Source: Escherichia phage UGJNEcP1. Taken from it: DNA of 64,000 nucleotides. The stretch lies in the sequence record OV754623; one strand, written 5' to 3'. This document shows, in pieces, positions 19,147 through 63,642 of the stretch. The position numbers were made by a program, and so were the translations under genes. Each line of letters begins with the position of its first letter. Position 1 is the first letter of the stretch. Under the pieces are notes generated by a model. The model was not told the origin of the DNA, ran no database searches, and was given only the letters and a program-made list of their open reading frames with translations.

Positions 19147-19717
19147 AAAAGTTTCGGATTTGTTCCCAATTCAGAGAACGAAGATTATTACGAGAGTACT
19201 GAATTACTTCAATACCAGCTTGTTTAAGAATGTCTGCCCAATTTTCAGGAGATCGGTCATATAATTCTGCATATACAACCTTTTTAATACCTGACTGTGT
19301 AATAGCTTTAGTGCAATCAGGACATGGAGAAAGTGTCGTATACAACGTAGCACCTTCAATAGAATTACCTTTACGAGCTGCAAACAAAATTGCATTCAGT
19401 TCCGCATGGATTTCGTTATTGGCAGACCATGCACTATGAGCAGCCCGATGTTCTTTAGCCAAAACAAAATTATCGGCCCGTCCAAATGCTGTAGTGCCTT
19501 CTTTATGCCCAGCAACGATGACTGGGATTGGTTTATTCTTCAACCAACCATTTTCAGATGCATGTTCGCAACAGTTAACGCCACCTGCAGGTGAACCGTT
19601 ATACCCAGTAGAAATAATGCGCCCATCTTTTTCAATGACTGCGCCAACTTTCCATGAACAACATTTTGATTCTTGAGAAATCAGATATGCAATCTGAAGG
19701 TATGTGCTAGCTTTCAT
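19136..19717 (-). CDS. cd: dCMP deaminase
   Basis: 193 aa as T4 Cd; zinc motifs HAE (HAELNAI) and PCxxC (SPCPDCTKAI). Confidence 0.9.
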   Translation of the reverse strand: MKASTYLQIAYLISQESKCCSWKVGAVIEKDGRIISTGYNGSPAGGVNCCEHASENGWLKNKPIPVIVAGHKEGTTAFGRADNFVLAKEHRAAHSAWSANNEIHAELNAILFAARKGNSIEGATLYTTLSPCPDCTKAITQSGIKKVVYAELYDRSPENWADILKQAGIEVIQYSRNNLRSLNWEQIRNFCGE

Positions 19718-20709
19718 TATTGAACCTTATTAATATAAGTTAACAGCTCTTTAGTTTGTTCCCAACTGATGCACGCATCGGTAACGGAAACGCCATAGGA
19801 CATATTATCAGAAATTTTTTGATTTCCTTCATGTAGGAATGATTCTATCATAATTCCTTTGACCAAATCATTAGCTGCTAAATTTTTACCAATACCAATT
19901 TGATTGCTATAATGCCCATCAGCGTTTGCATGGCTACAGTCAACCATTACATAATGATTCAGACCTACTGCCCTTGCTTTGTTAGAAGCTTCTTGAATAT
20001 CAGAAGAATGATAGTTCGGGCCGTTGGTCCCGCCACGCAATACGATATGCGTATTCTGATTACCTTCAGCTTCAACAATGCCTACAGTACCATCGACGTC
20101 CATACCCATATACCGATGAGGCCAGGCGGCACTATACATCGCGTCTGTAGCTACTTTAATAGAACCATTGGTTGCGTTCTTGAAGCCTACGCACATCGGT
20201 AGACCTGAAGCAATTTCACGATGTGTCTGACTTTCAGTCGTACGGGCGCCAATAGCAACCCATGAGAAAATACCAGAAAGATACTTAATCGTGAATGGGT
20301 CTAATACTTCAGTTGCTAATGGAAGTCCCATACGTAGAAGTTTACGACACAATGTTCGTGCAACTATAAGACCGTGGTTCATATCAAAACTTCCGTCAAG
20401 ATATGGATCATTTACAAGACCTTTCCAACCTACGGTAGTTCGAGGCTTTTCAAAATAAACGCGCATCACTAACAGAACATTAGGAAGACGAGTTTGAAGT
20501 TCAGCCAGACGTTTGCCGTATTCAACAGCAGCAATAGGGTCATGAATTGAACAAGGACCTACAACAATAAGTTTGCGTGGGTCTTCACCGTTCATAATCG
20601 AATTAACTTGTTCGCGATGAGAAGCCACTTGTGATGCGTAAGCTTCCGACAAAGGAATAATCTCAGCTAGTTCTTTTGGAGAAATAAGTTTTCCGACGAC
20701 AGGTAACAT
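19717..20709 (-). CDS. 3-deoxy-D-arabino-heptulosonate-7-phosphate (DAHP) synthase, class I (AroG/AroF/AroH type)
   Basis: 330 aa; GPCSIHDP, MRVYFEKPRTTVGWKGL, AIGARTTESQTHRE; putative metal ligands Cys (GPCS), His (CSHAN), Glu (IESFLHEG), Asp (TDACI), matching E. coli AroG as recalled. Confidence 0.85.
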   Translation of the reverse strand: MLPVVGKLISPKELAEIIPLSEAYASQVASHREQVNSIMNGEDPRKLIVVGPCSIHDPIAAVEYGKRLAELQTRLPNVLLVMRVYFEKPRTTVGWKGLVNDPYLDGSFDMNHGLIVARTLCRKLLRMGLPLATEVLDPFTIKYLSGIFSWVAIGARTTESQTHREIASGLPMCVGFKNATNGSIKVATDAMYSAAWPHRYMGMDVDGTVGIVEAEGNQNTHIVLRGGTNGPNYHSSDIQEASNKARAVGLNHYVMVDCSHANADGHYSNQIGIGKNLAANDLVKGIMIESFLHEGNQKISDNMSYGVSVTDACISWEQTKELLTYINKVQ

Positions 20710-33641: not shown

Positions 33642-34295
33642 TTAATACTTACATGATTTGATTGTTTCTATGAACAATTTCTTAGCAGCATTTCCATCGA
33701 TTTGAAGTATTTTTCGATATGCCTTTAATTTGGTAGAATAATTTTGCCAGACTAAATTGTCGGTAAGTTCGTCATGCTTATCTATAATATTCAAGAATGA
33801 ATCTAACAACAAGAAGGTTTCAAATGAAATTATATTGCTTTGTAGCAATTTAAATATGTAGCTCGACTGAACTTTATTATTATAATCAAATATCTCTTGA
33901 AGCGCACTAACTTCCACTTTCTTACTGAAATAGTAGATGTTACGTACGTCTTCAGCAAACGTCTCCTTGGCTTGTTTGAGACGTCCAATGTATTCCCTAT
34001 AGAAAACTAATGCATCAGCGTCTGATATCTCACCAATCCATGCGTCTTGGTTAGCAACTAAGTTGCTTATGAATATCAAGGTGAGTTCCTTCAATTTATA
34101 TTTCTCTGCTAGTTTTTCAAAGAAATATTTATCTCGGCGTTTTTGATACGCATTATCCGAAACACGCATGCACCAGTTATATTTGATTACGTCATACCGA
34201 CCACCAAAATGGTTTTTGCACATCAAGTATAGTTTATATACTGATTTTCCATTAATATAACGTTCTCCATCAGGAGGCATGCGTATTTTAATCAT
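33642..34295 (-). CDS. 59: helicase loader gp59
   Basis: 217 aa as T4 gp59; near-identical segments (DVIKYNWCMRVSD, AWIGEISDADALVFYREYIGRLKQ). Confidence 0.9.
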   Translation of the reverse strand: MIKIRMPPDGERYINGKSVYKLYLMCKNHFGGRYDVIKYNWCMRVSDNAYQKRRDKYFFEKLAEKYKLKELTLIFISNLVANQDAWIGEISDADALVFYREYIGRLKQAKETFAEDVRNIYYFSKKVEVSALQEIFDYNNKVQSSYIFKLLQSNIISFETFLLLDSFLNIIDKHDELTDNLVWQNYSTKLKAYRKILQIDGNAAKKLFIETIKSCKY

Positions 34296-34971
34296 ATTTC
34301 CATCCGGGCCATTTTGAAGATTTAAGTCTATATGTAACTAAAGACGCAGAAATATTAAAAACATTTGAAACTTCTTTACACGAGGCGTATTTTATACCAT
34401 CAATAGTTATAGGTTTTTGTTTTTTAATAGTCCTTTCTCTAGAATGTGGTTTTGAATTTGCTATTCTAAGAGCTTCTTTAGTGGAATCAGGCATCGCCTT
34501 ATTCGTTTTTCTCCCTTTTCGGACTTTACTCAAGGCCAATTTGTGAGCTTCAGATAGTTTCTTACCCTTATTAGGGGACGGTATTTTTCTTTCTAGTCTT
34601 GTTTTAGATACTTTAGCCTTAGTCTCTTCAGATCTAGGTTTACCTAATTTAGAAAGTGAAATGGCCCTTTTAGCTTCATCACTTTGTTTTTTGCCAGGAC
34701 CACCTTTACCACCGGGAACTAAGTTATAAGTATCATCTCGCAAAACAAAATCTTCATTAACCAATTCTGCTTCTTTTTTATAGGCGTCCTTGTCATTATC
34801 ATATTCATAAAGAATTTCGGTATAAAAATTTTTTAGTCCATATTTAGCTTTGGCCGCTAATATAGCGCGGCCTGATCCAATATACCAATCTTTCTCTTTA
34901 TGTTTTTTATGTACGCCTATATAAATTTTACCATTTATTTTATTGGTAGTTTTATACACAACGTATTTCAT
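34288..34971 (-). CDS. GIY-YIG homing endonuclease (Seg/I-TevI-like) with NUMOD3 repeats and C-terminal HTH
   Basis: N-terminal YVVYKTTNKINGKIYIGVHK GIY-YIG motif; repeated basic NUMOD-like motifs; C-terminal helix-turn-helix-like segment. Confidence 0.8.
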   Translation of the reverse strand: MKYVVYKTTNKINGKIYIGVHKKHKEKDWYIGSGRAILAAKAKYGLKNFYTEILYEYDNDKDAYKKEAELVNEDFVLRDDTYNLVPGGKGGPGKKQSDEAKRAISLSKLGKPRSEETKAKVSKTRLERKIPSPNKGKKLSEAHKLALSKVRKGRKTNKAMPDSTKEALRIANSKPHSRERTIKKQKPITIDGIKYASCKEVSNVFNISASLVTYRLKSSKWPGWKYD

Positions 34972-54741: not shown

Positions 54742-56955
54742 TTATTTGGCCGCTTCCACGGCCTTCATGAATTTAACGATTTGAGCGACCTGTTCTTTTG
54801 AAAGAGTACCACGTCGTCCCATGTATTCTGACACAATATGATAATTGGTTTCAAATTCAATAACCATTTTATCATCATTATCGTAAGCATTATCTTTAAG
54901 CTTATCGAAAATTTTAGCACACAATTCTAACTTCCTGTTCAGGTCTGTATTAGTAGCACCTGCGAATCGATTCCATCCCCAGCGATTATTTACTGTTGAG
55001 AGTTTTGCAAAGTCTTTACTGATTTCTTTGTTCTTAGAGCTAAAATACTTACTAAGGAAGTTAAGCTCTTCATTACGAGTAATATGATTCAAATAAGGCT
55101 GTGCTCTACGACTTGGTGATACATACTCATCATAATCTACTTTATCGATTAGCATAATATAGTCATTAATTGATTTTTCAAACAAACATTCTACTTCACC
55201 AAGTTTACGAACTTTCTTAGCAATCTGTGGGCGAACTACAGTGAACTCTTTAATACCTGACAAATCGGCAATACGAGTCAAGAAATTAGAATCATAGTTC
55301 AACCAACCTTTATCTGCGTCAAGACATTCAGCGTTAGAACGATTACGAATTACAACATAACCTTGAATCTCATCAGCTTTACCGGCCGGAATAAAGAGAT
55401 CTTCTGATACCCAAACATCGTTTTCATTCTTAAAGAACCGATGAGCACTCGGCGATTTAGGACGAGGCTGCGATGAACGTTCTTTAACTTCAATCCACGG
55501 TTTAACTAATGCAAGAATTTCAGATGTCTTATAAAATTTAAGGCTATCACCAGCGAAAATAACCTTTAATCGTTCCAGAAGTTTCATTGCAACTTCATCT
55601 TCCGGGTTAATGAATAATACGCTACTACCCCATCCGGAAGGAACCTTATCAACGAGTGTTGATGCATCGGTGGAAGTCAAAGCATCGTTCAGAGCACGCA
55701 TCATTGGTACGCGGCCTTTCACATCGTCAATAACGATATCAATATGCTTACGACTAATACCTAGCAGGCTATTAATTGAAATAGTTGCAGACGAGCTTCC
55801 GCTTTCACGAATACGACGAAGTCGTGGGTCTGAAACGATATCATATACAACGCCAAGGTTGCACCATTCAGGTCCCATTTTAAAACGTTTGTACAACTCA
55901 GAATAAGTTAGTTGTTCTTTAGAGTATTTCAGTGATTCAATATTAGAACCGGCTTTTTCCATATATTTACGAGCAGAGTAACCAAGAGAATCGATTTCAC
56001 GGAATACATGACGTGGATATTCACAATCAATCCATTTCTTAGAATCTTCAGCAAATAATTTTGCATCGATTTCTGCAACACGTTTATGGATATTTGCTAC
56101 TGTACGTTTATCAAATGACAATGCTTCACGAGACGGGGCTACATCTAGTTCACCCATAGGGAATTTAATATAAGCTGTAGTGCATCGCGTCATCATCCAT
56201 GTTTGTTCTTTAATAACACTTCCGATTGGATATACAATACCGCCATAAACAGCCATGATATTACCACGTTCACCCCATGGAGCTTCCTTGGCCAAATATA
56301 CATCGTCAAATTCAGGAAAGTATTTAATATCTTTAACACCGCGAACTTCTGCAATATCACCTAGAGGACGCATAACATATGCAATTTCAGATGCGAACTT
56401 TTCAAAATCTTCTGGGTTAACAGGTACAACTACTTCTACACCCGTACGGTCATCAGGACCCATCTTATCTACAAAGGTTGGCTTAATCTGTGGACCACTG
56501 TCATCTTGGTAGATTACGTAACCACGAACTTCACCGTTGTGATAAGACGTAAGGTTAAACGTATCAGTATATGCTAGCGGAGCTTTAGAGCCGAGTCCGA
56601 ATCCACCAATGAAATCGTTACTCGATGTTTTAGTTGAAGCAAAATATGAGTTATAGATTCCTGGCTCTTCGTCATTACCTCGAATGGTGAAATCACTCAT
56701 ACCAGGACCAAAGTCTCGAACTACAAAACGTGGGTCTAAACGACCTGGTGCCTGAACAATAAACTTATCAGTGCAACCATTAAGAATTTGTCCATCGATA
56801 CAGTTTGTGATTAATTCACGTACACAAGCCAATTCTTTGTTTGTATAAAGGTCATTAGACAAAATCTTATAAACTTTGCTATTGCCTTGAATAGTAAATG
56901 CTGTGCTCTTACCGCCTGAACCAATAATCGTTTCTTTAGCCGTTTCAATAATCAT
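54742..56955 (-). CDS. rIIA: rIIA membrane-associated protein
   Basis: 737 aa (T4 rIIA 725 aa); directly upstream of rIIB. Confidence 0.9.
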   Translation of the reverse strand: MIIETAKETIIGSGGKSTAFTIQGNSKVYKILSNDLYTNKELACVRELITNCIDGQILNGCTDKFIVQAPGRLDPRFVVRDFGPGMSDFTIRGNDEEPGIYNSYFASTKTSSNDFIGGFGLGSKAPLAYTDTFNLTSYHNGEVRGYVIYQDDSGPQIKPTFVDKMGPDDRTGVEVVVPVNPEDFEKFASEIAYVMRPLGDIAEVRGVKDIKYFPEFDDVYLAKEAPWGERGNIMAVYGGIVYPIGSVIKEQTWMMTRCTTAYIKFPMGELDVAPSREALSFDKRTVANIHKRVAEIDAKLFAEDSKKWIDCEYPRHVFREIDSLGYSARKYMEKAGSNIESLKYSKEQLTYSELYKRFKMGPEWCNLGVVYDIVSDPRLRRIRESGSSSATISINSLLGISRKHIDIVIDDVKGRVPMMRALNDALTSTDASTLVDKVPSGWGSSVLFINPEDEVAMKLLERLKVIFAGDSLKFYKTSEILALVKPWIEVKERSSQPRPKSPSAHRFFKNENDVWVSEDLFIPAGKADEIQGYVVIRNRSNAECLDADKGWLNYDSNFLTRIADLSGIKEFTVVRPQIAKKVRKLGEVECLFEKSINDYIMLIDKVDYDEYVSPSRRAQPYLNHITRNEELNFLSKYFSSKNKEISKDFAKLSTVNNRWGWNRFAGATNTDLNRKLELCAKIFDKLKDNAYDNDDKMVIEFETNYHIVSEYMGRRGTLSKEQVAQIVKFMKAVEAAK

Positions 56956-56967
56956 ATTTTTCTCTCA

Positions 56968-57168
56968 TCACAAGTTACGTTTAAAAATTTCTGCCACTTC
57001 GAGAAGTTCTTCTTTAGTAGCTGTATCGGTTTGTATTTTATATCGAATTTCTTTAAAGCGTTCTTTAAAGGACTCTGCTGACTCGATATCAAAAAATCTT
57101 TGGATAAGCCGGAATTCCCGGAGCACTGCTTTATCAAAAAGTTCCAAGTCCACGTTATATGTTCTCAT
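56968..57168 (-). CDS. hypothetical protein (rIIA.1 position)
   Basis: 66-aa ORF; preferred over the overlapping 56952..57137 frame on composition. Confidence 0.5.
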   Translation of the reverse strand: MRTYNVDLELFDKAVLREFRLIQRFFDIESAESFKERFKEIRYKIQTDTATKEELLEVAEIFKRNL

Positions 57169-57260: not shown

Positions 57261-58361
57261 TTACGCTGTGAAGATTTTATCCCACATCGCAACAACTGCA
57301 TCTCGGTTATACTTCTTCCATACTGCTTCAGCACGTTTAACTCGAGCTTCGTATGTGTCAGTGAATTCTAATACAGCTTTTGTGTAAAGCGCAACTACTT
57401 CTTTCTTAGGAGTAGAGGAATCAATTTCTACACGCACAGTATCTGGGTCGTATTCGAATGTCGCATGAGGATAATCCTTAAAAACTAACTGGATTACAGG
57501 GACACCTTTAGAGATGGCTTCAATAGAACTATTCTCTACAGTACCTGTGTCAGGACACGTATTAATAAGTGCTTTAGCTGTTTTAAGACGTTCCATAATT
57601 TCACTGTGTGGAGCATCAATAATAACAGGATATTTAGCTGGTGGCGCCCATTTGCTTGGACAGTATCCTGCACCATTTTCGCCTAGTGCTTTAATCGCTT
57701 CAAGAGCAACATCAGTACGACGCATTTTAGTGTCATAACGTTGTGCACTAATAATCAGATCCGTCGCCGGAAGAACTTCTGGCTTTTCAGTCAAACAAAT
57801 AACCGGATAATCTTCGGCTTCAAACAACGGATTTGCTCGCCAATAATCATAATCAATTTTGTCAGTCAGACCTGAAGTCATATAACAATATTTGCGTTCA
57901 AATTCACGGAAGGCTTTAGTAGGAGCATAACTCTTACCACCATTCTTATGAATTTGAATAGTCTGGTCCCAAATTTGAACAATGCCACGAGATACCGGTT
58001 CAAATGGTGTTGCCATAAAATTCTTATGAACTTTAGAGAGACCTGCGTCTTTAATTGCCTGAACGGTTAGTTTAGTCGGTTCCATAGTAACAACAAAATC
58101 GTATTCATGGATGCCGGCTAGTTCAACAATCTTACGAGCCATAGTATAACTCATACCTAGACTGAATTTAGTCAGATGACCAACAGGATGATGATTAACT
58201 TTCCAATCACCAAATGTGTCATTATCAAAACCGATATAATCAATATCAGCACCGATGGACACAAGATATTTCAACACGTTCAAATGAACCGCTTCAAGAC
58301 CACCTTGTACACGGTCAGGATTAAATGGGACTGCACGAGATGGGATAAACATAACTTTCAT
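57261..58361 (-). CDS. candidate GT-B fold glycosyltransferase
   Basis: 366 aa; Rossmann-like N-terminus (MKVMFIPS...GGLE) and C-terminal E-x(n)-E...G-PVI motif (VENSSIEAISKGVPVI). Confidence 0.5.
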   Translation of the reverse strand: MKVMFIPSRAVPFNPDRVQGGLEAVHLNVLKYLVSIGADIDYIGFDNDTFGDWKVNHHPVGHLTKFSLGMSYTMARKIVELAGIHEYDFVVTMEPTKLTVQAIKDAGLSKVHKNFMATPFEPVSRGIVQIWDQTIQIHKNGGKSYAPTKAFREFERKYCYMTSGLTDKIDYDYWRANPLFEAEDYPVICLTEKPEVLPATDLIISAQRYDTKMRRTDVALEAIKALGENGAGYCPSKWAPPAKYPVIIDAPHSEIMERLKTAKALINTCPDTGTVENSSIEAISKGVPVIQLVFKDYPHATFEYDPDTVRVEIDSSTPKKEVVALYTKAVLEFTDTYEARVKRAEAVWKKYNRDAVVAMWDKIFTA

Positions 58362-58387
58362 AATTAAGCCTTATTAAAATTAAAATG

Positions 58388-58405
58388 AAGCTCCCGAAGG
58401 AGCTT
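58388..58405 (-). terminator. hairpin AAGCUCC-UUCG-GGAGCUU at the 3' end of gene 39
   Basis: Overlaps the last codons and stop of gene 39; U-rich sequence downstream. Confidence 0.4.
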
Positions 58406-60221
58406 AGGACATCCATTCTTTACGAAGTTCTGAATCATCACCCATCAACATTTCAAAGAGTTCTTTCCAATTTTCAGGAAGTTTAACTACGTCGTACACA
58501 GGGTTCTGAATCATTTCACGATATTCTGACTTTTCAAGGGAGCCTAATCCCTTGATGTATCTAATACTATGCTTAGGCAGTGTATCTTTAACTTCTTCAT
58601 ACTCAGCTACAGTATAAAACCATTTTTGAGTTTTGCCAATTTGTGCAATAATTACAGGCGTTTTAACAAAACGAATACGTCCTTGTTCAAACAATTCAGG
58701 CCAATTACTAAAGAAAGCAAGCAAAGCCGGATAGATACTTCCAAGACCGTCGTGATCTGCATCGGTCATAATTGCAATATTACGATAGTTCGTATTCTCT
58801 GCCTTTTCACCAAGAATAAGACCTGTGATAGCACAGATATCGAAGAGCTCTTTGTTCTTCATCATATCGGCATATGACATACCCCAGCTATTCATCACCT
58901 TACCACGTAATGGGAATCCACCGTGTAGTTCACGGTCACGAACATCAATGAGATAACCAATTGCCGAATCACCTTCTGTTAAAAACAATGTTGTATCTGC
59001 ATCTTTACCGCATTGGTTAGCTTTAATATGCTTATGAACCTTAGCTTTAGTTGCCTTTTTAGCTGCTTTAGTTTCTGCAGCCTTTTCTGCCGCCAATTTA
59101 CGAGCTAATGCTGCTTCAACAATAGGCATAATCAAGGCTTCGTTTTTAAGAAGTGCCTGAGCAATTTTCTTAGCATCTAATTGGATATGATTACGAATAT
59201 CACCGTACGTTGACGTTAAACGCTCTTTAGTCTGAGAATCAAAACGCATGTTGCTCATGTCTCTAATAAACATCAACATTGTGAGACATTCTTTAACACG
59301 AGCTTTAGTGACTTCAATACCCTTATATTTCTTTTTAATACCTGGCAAAAGATGTTCACAGATATCATCCATTACACATTCAACATGATGACCACCATTT
59401 TTAGTATGGATGTTATTCACATAAGTTAAATGACGGAAGCCATCTGGTGATGTTGTGAATGCTATAGAAACTTTATCATTTTCTTGAATGATGTTATCTT
59501 CACCAAATTGTTTAGCAAATCGTTTAAAATTACCATCAACCTTTTTACCATTAAATGTGAACTTGATATCAGGATAAACGACTGCCAATGTTTGAAGTCG
59601 GTCTAAAGTAATATCTAAATAAATTTGAGATAAATTGTGCTCTTCAAACGAAGAGAAATCAGGAGTGAAGATTACTTTAGTGCCTTTACCTTTAGATTTC
59701 TTAGAAGACCATGATTTGTTTTCCATTCCATTTGAACAGTTAACAGTGATTTCATTTTCGCCATCTGACGTAATGCCTGTAAACAACGTAGAGAAGATAT
59801 TAGTTAAACTACTCCCGACGCCATTCATACCACCAGTCTTGCGTTCAGAGTCATCACCAAAGTTACCACCGGCCTTTGGAATAGTCCAGGCTGCTACAGG
59901 CCCAGGAATTTGTTCACCTGTTTGGTCGGTAACTAAACCTTGAGGAATACCACGTCCGTTATCTTCCACCGAAACTTGATTATTTTTAATTTGCACATCA
60001 ATTTTATTTGCAAACTTAAATGATGTACGAATAGCTTCATCAACCGAGTTGTCAATAATCTCATCGATTAATTTAACCAGACCAGGAACATATTCAACTT
60101 GTTGATATTTACCAAACAAAAAACGCTCATGTGCTTCTTTAGCTGAAGAACCAATATACATACCACTGCGTTTCTTAATATGTTCTACATCCGACAATAC
60201 CTTAATTTCATTTTTAATCAT
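58404..60221 (-). CDS. 39: DNA topoisomerase II large subunit gp39 (unsplit 39+60 form)
   Basis: 605 aa; GHKL ATPase N-terminus; one continuous ORF covering what T4 splits into genes 39 and 60. Confidence 0.9.
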   Translation of the reverse strand: MIKNEIKVLSDVEHIKKRSGMYIGSSAKEAHERFLFGKYQQVEYVPGLVKLIDEIIDNSVDEAIRTSFKFANKIDVQIKNNQVSVEDNGRGIPQGLVTDQTGEQIPGPVAAWTIPKAGGNFGDDSERKTGGMNGVGSSLTNIFSTLFTGITSDGENEITVNCSNGMENKSWSSKKSKGKGTKVIFTPDFSSFEEHNLSQIYLDITLDRLQTLAVVYPDIKFTFNGKKVDGNFKRFAKQFGEDNIIQENDKVSIAFTTSPDGFRHLTYVNNIHTKNGGHHVECVMDDICEHLLPGIKKKYKGIEVTKARVKECLTMLMFIRDMSNMRFDSQTKERLTSTYGDIRNHIQLDAKKIAQALLKNEALIMPIVEAALARKLAAEKAAETKAAKKATKAKVHKHIKANQCGKDADTTLFLTEGDSAIGYLIDVRDRELHGGFPLRGKVMNSWGMSYADMMKNKELFDICAITGLILGEKAENTNYRNIAIMTDADHDGLGSIYPALLAFFSNWPELFEQGRIRFVKTPVIIAQIGKTQKWFYTVAEYEEVKDTLPKHSIRYIKGLGSLEKSEYREMIQNPVYDVVKLPENWKELFEMLMGDDSELRKEWMS

Positions 60222-62191: not shown

Positions 62192-62611
62192 TTATGCAAA
62201 AGATGCTGGACAATATTTTTTGATTTGGAACTCAGGAACTACCATGAACTGACCAGCAAAAACAATGTTATAAAGCTTGACGCCATCTTCAACCCATTGG
62301 TCACTGATGAACCCAGCGACTTGATTCGTTGTCCACGGTGTTCCGTCTGTCGCAGAGGCAATGGTGAACTTGTGGTCTTTTACAACTAAAACCGATCTGC
62401 ACAGTTTCCATTTGAACGCTTTTTCTTCCGGTTCAATGAATTGGCTTTTAACGTAACCAATGTTACCATCGGCGTCACGAACTTTAATTTCGTTACGTCC
62501 AAAAACAGGATCACTCACATAAAGAACTTCAACCAACTTCCCGGCAACTTTAGAGCGAGAAGCATCCGATACGTGTACATAATCACCAATAGAGAGATTT
62601 GCAATATTCAT
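62192..62611 (-). CDS. paralogue A of a tandem family (KOW-like N-terminus, DQWVEDG C-terminal motif)
   Basis: C-terminus GFISDQWVEDGVKLYNIVFAGQF shared with the next two genes; N-terminus SIGDYVHVSDASRSKVAGKLVEV shared with paralogue B. Confidence 0.55.
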   Translation of the reverse strand: MNIANLSIGDYVHVSDASRSKVAGKLVEVLYVSDPVFGRNEIKVRDADGNIGYVKSQFIEPEEKAFKWKLCRSVLVVKDHKFTIASATDGTPWTTNQVAGFISDQWVEDGVKLYNIVFAGQFMVVPEFQIKKYCPASFA

Positions 62612-62620
62612 AATAATTCC

Positions 62621-63085
62621 TTAAGCTTTACGAGGAGACACATAGCGAGTGATTTCAGATTCTTCAACAACTCGGAAGTCACCTAAGAATACAATATTGT
62701 ATAGCTTTTTACCATCTTCAACCCATTGGTCGCTGATGAAGCCGCACATAGTATCAGTTTTGCTTGGATAACCGTATTCGTCGATGTAATCAAATTCTTT
62801 ATCGGTTATAAATTCAACGCCTTTGCAAAGGGCCCATTTGAACTGTGTAGTAGGCTCAACGATATCGCTTGAAGCAAATTGGACTCGTATATGTTTTTCC
62901 AGGAATTTAGGACTTACGTAAGCATACTGGGCATCTTGTCCGCCAAAACTCGGGATGATTCGAACTTTAACTTCTTTAACACGTCCCATGCCGTTAGTAC
63001 GAAGCCCTGCTACTTCAACCAGACGACCTGCAGCTTTAGAACGAGAAGCAGGAGATACACGAAGGATTTCACCAATAGTAATCAT
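62621..63085 (-). CDS. paralogue B of the tandem family
   Basis: ORF 62621..63148 trimmed to Met 22 (track start lies in the promoter); GFISDQWVEDGKKLYNIVFLGDF. Confidence 0.55.
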   Translation of the reverse strand: MITIGEILRVSPASRSKAAGRLVEVAGLRTNGMGRVKEVKVRIIPSFGGQDAQYAYVSPKFLEKHIRVQFASSDIVEPTTQFKWALCKGVEFITDKEFDYIDEYGYPSKTDTMCGFISDQWVEDGKKLYNIVFLGDFRVVEESEITRYVSPRKA

Positions 63086-63115
63086 AATTTCTCTCTCTTT
63101 GTTTAAATTGAATTC

Positions 63116-63145
63116 ACTATACTCCATCCATCCTTGGATGTACAA
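63116..63145 (-). promoter_or_regulatory. early-type promoter variant (TTGTAC-N18-TATAGT)
   Basis: Upstream of paralogue B (start 63085); spacer CCAAGGATGG. Confidence 0.45.
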
Positions 63146-63147
63146 CA

Positions 63148-63642
63148 TTAATTAAGGATATTAACCACAGCACTACGTGGAACAACACTAAAATCACCAG
63201 CATGAACAACGTTAATAAGTTCAACACCATCTTCAATCCACTGGTCAGTTACCCATCCACTCACTGGACCTGCGAACGGACGTCGAATTGAAACGGCTTT
63301 ACACAACAAATCAGTAGGCTCAATAGGCTTAATCAGAGTACCGTACATACAAGCGATGTCCATATCAAAGTGGAGACCATCTTTAACAGGTGCTTCTTCA
63401 ATCAACAGTTCAAAGTCTGTGCTTGGAAGGGCGGTAGTAGAAATTGTACCGTATGAATTTTTAATTTCTAAGAATAACCAAGGGCCTTCAGCTTGTTTGA
63501 TGAAGTTAACAATAGTGAAACTATTACCTTGAGTGGCACCTAAAATTTCACAAAACTTTTCATAAGCTCGCACTGAAGCACCGTACCAATTGATTTGTTT
63601 TTCGTCTTTCAGGATGTAAGTAGCCGTAGTATTGATATTCAT
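63148..63642 (-). CDS. paralogue C of the tandem family (C-terminal domain only shared)
   Basis: C-terminus GWVTDQWIEDGVELINVVHAGDF; own promoter and AGGAAA SD. Confidence 0.55.
   Translation of the reverse strand: MNINTTATYILKDEKQINWYGASVRAYEKFCEILGATQGNSFTIVNFIKQAEGPWLFLEIKNSYGTISTTALPSTDFELLIEEAPVKDGLHFDMDIACMYGTLIKPIEPTDLLCKAVSIRRPFAGPVSGWVTDQWIEDGVELINVVHAGDFSVVPRSAVVNILN

Follow-up and report, generated by a model that had tools for sequence, protein, structure and literature searches.

A predicted GT-B DNA arabinosyltransferase encoded between rIIA.1 and gene 39 of RB69-like Escherichia phages

We analyzed a stretch of 64,000 nucleotides of Escherichia phage UGJNEcP1 (OV754623), hereafter the window, the DNA of which is 100% identical to that of Escherichia phage UGJNEcP2 (OV877511.1), an RB69-like member of Mosigvirus. 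The object of the study is an open reading frame (ORF) placed between rIIA.1 and the 3' end of a fused gene 39+60, in the following arrangement:

54742..56955: rIIA, which flanks the ORF beyond rIIA.1
56968..57168: rIIA.1, one neighbour of the ORF (Pfam PF24210, E 2e-30)
57261..58361, minus strand: the putative transferase ORF, with an ATG start and 366 aa, taken from the ORF list
58404..60221, minus strand: gene for the topoisomerase II large subunit (fused 39+60), 605 aa, the other neighbour

The region is 98.1% identical to RB69 at the nucleotide level, and the RB69 gene found there is RB69ORF003c. In T4 the order of genes is rIIA, rIIA.1, 60, 60.1, mobA and 39. The initial annotation had set the ORF at the T4 gene 60/mobA site, and it does lie near rIIA.1 and gene 39, but gene 60 has not been replaced. 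The C-terminus of the 605-aa topoisomerase ORF (aa 452-605) matches a gp60-type PHROG, which indicates that genes 39 and 60 are fused in the window; since both reside in one ORF, the transferase ORF is no substitute for gene 60. The T4 39/60 split, the 50-nt translational bypass, gene 60.1 and mobA are all missing in the window phage.

The ORF is real, far above chance expectation, given that about 155 Mosigvirus records carry it at amino acid identities of at least 96% and 56 Acinetobacter phage records carry homologues at about 43%. The UGJNEcP2 record annotates it as 'hypothetical protein' because no Pfam or NCBIfam model recognises it; the Pfam scan of the ORF returned nothing even at E <= 1, and NCBIfam returned nothing. 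In Shigella phage JK45 (NC_054940.1 2520-2930; L007 662-1072), an extra 136-aa ORF identical to part of the gene lies just 3' of the full 366-aa gene, and the locus exceeds that of other records by about 500 bp; a partial tandem duplication or an assembly artefact would account for this.

The genes of a modified-cytosine phage that the initial annotation had named were borne out by the record, which annotates a dCMP deaminase, an alc-like host transcription inhibitor, an endonuclease, an anti-restriction nuclease and a DenB-like endonuclease. Other parts of the window hold features of separate interest. Three tandem ORFs of 139, 175 and 164 aa at 62192-63642 (minus strand) have a common C-terminal motif, GF(I/V)(S/T)DQW(V/I)EDG.KL(Y/I)N(I/V)VF.G.F.VVP; the first is labelled MotB-like in the record, and the set appears to be a local paralogue array. 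An annotated phage DAHP synthase (aroF-like phospho-2-dehydro-3-deoxyheptonate aldolase; 19717-20709, minus strand), an unusual auxiliary metabolic gene in a T4-like phage, adjoins the dCMP deaminase, and a homing endonuclease gene (34288-34971, minus strand) is annotated between the genes for a gene 59-like helicase loader and a late-promoter transcription regulator. Scans for tRNAs and Rfam families gave no match in the whole window.

Two elements that could bear on expression lie 5' of the ORF:

58369..58372, minus strand: AAGG, a Shine-Dalgarno-like sequence 7 nt 5' of the ATG
58388..58405, minus strand: hairpin AAGCUCC-UUCG-GGAGCUU, with a 7-bp stem and a C(UUCG)G tetraloop, a terminator-like match

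The first was read from the sequence and would serve in translation initiation only if its resemblance to a Shine-Dalgarno element holds. The hairpin lies 26 nt 5' of the ORF start, where it overlaps the stop codon of gene 39 and precedes a U-rich tract. The centroid fold of a 66-nt stretch contains it, while the z-score of that whole stretch is non-significant and no better than that of shuffles. Placed between gene 39 and the transferase gene, it may stabilise mRNA or act as a partial terminator. T4-type early, middle (MotA box) and late promoter motifs were all absent from the coding strand between 57100 and 59200, and sigma-70-like promoters were fewer than expected from shuffled sequences; we consequently assume co-transcription with gene 39. 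The third-position GC content (GC3) of the transferase gene is 0.267 compared to 0.275 in its neighbours. Recent horizontal acquisition was ruled out by these values, and the gene looks like a long-resident part of the gene 39 transcription unit.

At the sequence level, the ORF is an ortholog of RB69 ORF003c/gp3 and of the HY126 glycosyltransferase. Amino acid identity is 99.5% with RB69ORF003c and 98.4% with the chain of PDB entries 9iqz and 9ir0, where six residues differ (E 5.9e-249 in the PDB sequence search). The Foldseek listing gives these entries the titles 'phage HY126 glycosyltransferase' and '... with UDP' and a release date of 2025-07-16. Single-sequence and profile searches of the PDB recovered 9iqz/9ir0 only, with no sequence bridge to other glycosyltransferases. 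Among PHROGs the ORF matches phrog_8302 ('unknown function') over residues 1-366 with E 2e-222. More distant relatives include the paralogous proteins gp77 and gp76 of Acinetobacter phage DLP3, which are 43% and 41% identical to the ORF over the full length and 58% identical to each other. Since gp76 and gp77 are closer to each other than to the ORF, the ORF is an outgroup to their duplication and has no specific orthology to gp77. A word-indexed search found five clusters of relatives and an exhaustive HMMER profile search found 11 representatives. The family is thus tiny, since the 1.84 billion cluster representatives searched include no more than these 11 at E <= 1e-3.

Profile evidence connecting this family to described glycosyltransferases is faint. 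The ORF sequence does not reach the CAZy GT4/Pfam profile threshold (PF00534, PF13692, Glyco_trans_4), and GT4-type Pfam models left only sub-threshold traces across 13 members (GT4-conflict 0.0028, Glyco_trans_1_4 0.013, Glycos_transf_1 0.048). Profile comparison with the alpha- and beta-glucosyltransferases of T4 (a-gt and b-gt), as single-sequence templates, revealed no similarity, and their Pfam families gave no match; HHpred similarity was seen with deeper profiles by Thomas et al. 2018 (PMC6024577). The ORF also has no sequence similarity to the 299-aa first transferase of the RB69 gp46:47 family (BLASTP E = 2).

Structure prediction was more informative. The final AlphaFold2 (AF2) model was built from a 13-sequence alignment for which the exhaustive search supplied diverse relatives, and has a pLDDT of 91.5 and a pTM of 0.87. 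It consists of two Rossmann-like alpha/beta domains with a cleft between them. The GT-B glycosyltransferase guess of the initial annotation was in this way upheld, and no other kind of fold was obtained; even an earlier model from six sequences, at pLDDT 60, had only GT-B enzymes as structural matches. The closest solved structures are members of GT4, and non-phage structural neighbours are 10-15% identical to the ORF. The proposed kinship with the T4 alpha- and beta-glucosyltransferases fared less well, the structure being nearer to cellular GT4 enzymes, and T4 beta-glucosyltransferase was not found among the best 60 structural neighbours. In BFVD, the nearest viral structural neighbours beyond the ORF's own family include the glycosyltransferases of Rhizobium phage RL2RES and Sinorhizobium phage phiM9, at TM 0.69. 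These may be functionally related DNA glycosyltransferases, because glycosylated 5-hydroxycytosine has been reported in Rhizobium phage RL38J1.

The motifs that had drawn attention to the ORF, MKVMFIPS at aa 1-8, GGLE at aa 20-23 and VENSSIEAISKGVPVI at aa 275-290, are all present in the 366-aa product of 57261-58361 and take defined positions in the model, together with a third conserved segment:

58293..58361, minus strand: beta-strand 1 MKVMFIPS (aa 1-8) and the Gly-rich loop G20-G21-L22-E23, in the N-terminal, acceptor-side Rossmann-like domain
57732..57746, minus strand: A206-Q-R208-Y-D210, at the start of the C-terminal Rossmann-like domain
57492..57539, minus strand: V275-E276-N-S-S-I-E281-A-I-S-K-G286-V-P-V-I290 (VENSSIEAISKGVPVI), the putative nucleotide-sugar binding helix of the C-terminal domain

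In the model, the N-terminus forms a strand (residues 2-6) and then a helix (21-35), and a further helix spans residues 277-284 within the 275-290 motif. The residues invariant in the family are G142, R208, R214, N267, T268, T274, E281, A282, G286, Q291, E303, P306 and R340, as established over the 13-member alignment, and G20, Q207, D210, E276, P288 and V289 are nearly invariant. R208 is a candidate contact for the UDP phosphates. By analogy with other GT-B enzymes, E281 would be the Glu that binds the ribose of the donor; it is invariant in the 13 members, and 9ir0 is a crystal structure of the 98%-identical HY126 protein with UDP. Note that the canonical GT4 EX7E motif is not kept: E281 stands for its second Glu, but the position of the first Glu, eight residues before it, is taken by G273, which is nearly invariant, and the spacing is E276-x4-E281 instead. 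The residues agree with those highlighted by Thomas et al. 2018 when they proposed from HMM/HHpred and Phyre2 results that ORF003c is the arabinosyltransferase, namely G20, an Arg near 207 and E281. In their alignments G20 corresponds to Gly-15 of T4 a-gt, the Arg (numbered 207 there) to Arg-204 of T4 a-gt, a beta-phosphate contact, and E281 to E311 of T4 a-gt (PMC6024577).

The chemistry in which such an enzyme would take part has been established in RB69. Arabinose in RB69 DNA was found by Thomas et al. 2018 (PMC6024577). Lee et al. (NAR 2026) then described the full replacement of cytosine by mono- and di-arabinosylated 5-hydroxycytosine, and NMR and MS identified the disaccharide as beta-D-Araf-(1->3)-alpha-D-Araf on 5-hydroxycytosine, not on hydroxymethylcytosine (hmC) (PMC13326640). 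The ThyA homologue gp48 makes 5-hydroxy-dCMP in RB69; gp46:47, with a GT-B-like model, was proposed as the first transferase, a first-step assignment put forward as a hypothesis; and RB69p003 (NP_861693.1), or gp3, was listed as 'beta-arabinosyltransferase 2' and proposed as the maker of the di-arabinosylated species (PMC13326640). DNA of the Mosigvirus NP is also di-arabinosylated (PMC13390438), as is that of Bas46/47 (Mosigvirus). A citing paper also describes a deletion of the arabinosyltransferase Aat that sensitised Bas46 to a defence system, and the passages that cite this result do not say which gene Aat is. The DLP3 proteins gp76 and gp77, when combined in vitro, use UDP-Araf to extend the modification of RB69 DNA by a third Araf; single DLP3 glycosyltransferases were inactive, and none, gp79 included, acted alone on DNA with 5-hydroxycytosine (5hoC) (PMC13326640). 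The gene is therefore already known: it was the subject of the 2018 proposal, a crystal structure of a near-identical protein with UDP followed in 2025, and the RB69 ortholog received its second-arabinosyltransferase assignment in 2026. Of the options raised by the initial annotation, a second arabinosyl transferase coincides with the current proposal for RB69 gp3 (PMC13326640, PMC13390438). A hydroxymethylcytosine derivative as acceptor does not fit the arabinosyl-5-hydroxycytosine chemistry (PMC13326640), and a novel glycosylation function is superseded by a discussion of the gene that goes back to 2018 (PMC6024577).

The other components of the pathway are encoded in the same genome. A complete RB69-type arabinosylation cluster lies outside the window in UGJNEcP2, between uvsX and gene 43 (OV877511.1 85.5-92.1 kb). 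It comprises a kinase, an intact 299-aa ORF equivalent to RB69 gp46:47 (the first glycosyltransferase), a ThyA homologue, a U32-peptidase-like protein, a small HAD-like protein (HAD-like phosphatase), a 561-aa protein with NTP-transferase and kinase parts, and a SIS-domain arabinose-5-phosphate isomerase. The Pfam domains of these proteins are consistent with an arabinosylation pathway, and the ThyA homologue is 99% identical to RB69 gp48, a verified 5hodCMP synthase. UGJNEcP2 thus encodes a 5-hydroxy-dCMP synthase, a UDP-arabinose pathway and a first transferase. Where the RB69 reference has the split pairs gp46/gp47 and gp52/gp53, UGJNEcP2 has one intact ORF each, of 299 and 561 aa (L002 2076-2975 and 5574-7259, in OV877511.1 outside the window), in line with the literature, which attributes the splits in RB69 to sequencing errors.

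The phylogenetic distribution of the two transferase families revealed a nested pattern. Members of the first-transferase family are present in 348 phage records, which cover phages of Escherichia, Klebsiella, Serratia, Enterobacter, Proteus, Yersinia, Shewanella (Thanatos) and Acinetobacter. The family of the ORF occurs in only 211 records, all inside that distribution, with one copy in Mosigvirus and two in Acinetobacter-type phages. Copy numbers of zero, one and two coincide with mono- (Thanatos), di- (RB69, NP, Bas46/47) and tri-arabinosylation (DLP3). Furthermore, in Lazarusvirus (Acinetobacter phage) genomes both homologues are located in or directly beside the arabinosylation cluster. 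A record labelled Tegunavirus sp. BRC001 (OZ038340.1) has two family copies at about 43% identity, as in Acinetobacter phages. Since it was deposited in a submission series that also contains Acinetobacter phage records, its label may be wrong, or the family may extend to another genus.

Taken together, sequence identity, fold, the chemistry of Mosigvirus DNA, the published assignment, homologue biochemistry, genomic context and distribution make it very probable that the ORF encodes a soluble GT-B (GT4-like) Mosigvirus DNA arabinosyltransferase, predicted to add the second arabinose. According to the proposed mechanism, phage DNA after replication would contain 5-hydroxycytosine instead of cytosine, with 5-hydroxy-dCMP provided by the phage ThyA homologue. 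A first, unrelated transferase of the RB69 gp46:47 family would put alpha-D-arabinofuranose on the 5-hydroxyl. The ORF enzyme would bind UDP-arabinofuranose in its C-terminal Rossmann domain, probably via R208, E276 and E281, and would link a second arabinofuranose to the first sugar at O3, so that beta-D-Araf-(1->3)-alpha-D-Araf-5-hydroxy-dC is formed. [quoted passage not shown] We infer from the foregoing comparisons that the ORF protein carries out the second, beta-1,3 step and that it acts on DNA rather than on nucleotides. Its GT4 structural neighbours also suggest a retaining mechanism, which would imply UDP-beta-D-Araf as the donor.

The inactivity of single DLP3 glycosyltransferases and the need for gp76 and gp77 together make a partner requirement or another order of steps possible. 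An unlikely variant of the scheme is that the enzyme is a retaining GT4-like transferase that reads the DNA-attached sugar and is deliberately sub-stoichiometric, or that it is active only when complexed with the first transferase. If the sub-stoichiometric reading were true, the mixture of mono- and di-arabinosyl forms would be a tuned heterogeneous coat that hedges against form-specific defences. The complex would resemble that of DLP3 gp76/gp77, but its partner would be the unrelated first transferase.

The explanations that depart further from a second arabinosyltransferase are much less likely because of the evidence that counts against each. It is quite improbable that the ORF encodes the base-proximal, first arabinosyltransferase, which would attach arabinose directly to the hydroxylated cytosine. 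This was the view of Thomas et al. 2018, who named ORF003c 'the' arabinosyltransferase when a single candidate was recognised (PMC6024577), and the later study, where DLP3 gp79 alone was inactive on 5hoC DNA, gives the identity of the first-step enzyme as a hypothesis (PMC13326640). However, Thanatos, with its single pentose, and phages of many genera with the 5hodCMP-synthase/UDP-Ara cluster have a gp46:47-type glycosyltransferase yet carry no homologue of the ORF, the homologues gp76/gp77 work on DNA that is already arabinosylated (PMC13326640), and family copy number tracks the count of extra sugars.

A non-DNA acceptor, whether a host envelope glycolipid or LPS, a phage protein or a small molecule, is very unlikely. 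Every non-phage structural neighbour acts on lipids, sugars or small molecules (PimA, WaaG, BshA, tetrahydrobiopterin glucosyltransferase), the Mosigvirus gene is about 22 kb away from the arabinosylation cluster, and some records annotate the ORF as a phosphatidylinositol mannosyltransferase. These neighbours, however, are uninformative on the acceptor at 10-15% identity; the Acinetobacter phage homologues lie inside the DNA-arabinosylation cluster and gp76 and gp77 modify DNA in vitro (PMC13326640), and the family is confined to genomes with a DNA-arabinosylation pathway. Finally, a hydroxymethylcytosine glucosyltransferase, equivalent to T4 alpha-GT or beta-GT or a second 'gentiobiosyl' transferase, is suggested by the label 'putative DNA alpha-glucosyltransferase' of some Acinetobacter phage homologues but is extremely improbable, given that Mosigvirus DNA has arabinosylated 5-hydroxycytosine and neither hmC nor glucose (PMC13326640, PMC13390438), that the phage ThyA homologue is nearly identical to a verified 5hodCMP synthase and that the profile comparison with single-sequence T4 a-gt/b-gt templates and the search for their Pfam families were negative.

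The assignment of the ORF as a second arabinosyltransferase matters since phages counter host defences by arabinosylating 5-hydroxycytosine in their DNA, a strategy, clarified recently, that protects against type II restriction, some DNA glycosylases and CRISPR systems and has relevance to phage therapy and to the sequencing and engineering of Mosigvirus. In terms of annotation, 'hypothetical protein' in most of the Mosigvirus records can be changed to putative DNA beta-arabinofuranosyltransferase, second arabinose. The additions of the present analysis are modest, and consist of the correspondence of zero, one and two gene copies with one, two and three arabinoses and of the delimitation of the family in protein sequence space.

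Comparison with known systems places the predicted second arabinosyltransferase among phage and cellular enzymes. Its closest counterparts, the HY126 glycosyltransferase (9iqz apo, 9ir0 with UDP) and RB69 ORF003c/gp3, differ from it by a handful of substitutions, none at family-invariant positions. DLP3 gp77/gp76 (Lazarusvirus), which are DNA beta-arabinofuranosyltransferases with UDP-Araf as donor and arabinosylated DNA as acceptor (PMC13326640), have in common with it the invariant G142, R208, R214, N267, T268, T274, E281 and G286. DLP3 has two paralogues in the cluster and a tri-arabinosyl product, whereas Mosigvirus has one copy at a distant locus and two sugars. The RB69 gp46:47 family (DLP3 gp79, Thanatos GT) belongs to the same pathway and the same genome and is likewise GT-B-like, but its members are shorter (299 aa), more widespread and proposed to form the alpha linkage to the base. 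The cellular neighbours are GT4-type retaining GT-B enzymes, namely sucrose-phosphate synthase (6kih), BshA (6n1x), PimA (2gej), PimB' (3okc), WaaB (6y6i), WaaG (8b5s) and PglA (8dqd). The ORF differs from them in its low sequence identity, in the E276-x4-E281 spacing in place of EX7E, in matching no Pfam GT model at threshold, and in its proposed acceptor, a sugar on duplex DNA, and proposed donor, UDP-Araf. Both T4 alpha-glucosyltransferase (1y6f/1xv5) and T4 beta-glucosyltransferase are structurally further from the ORF than are these cellular GT4 enzymes.
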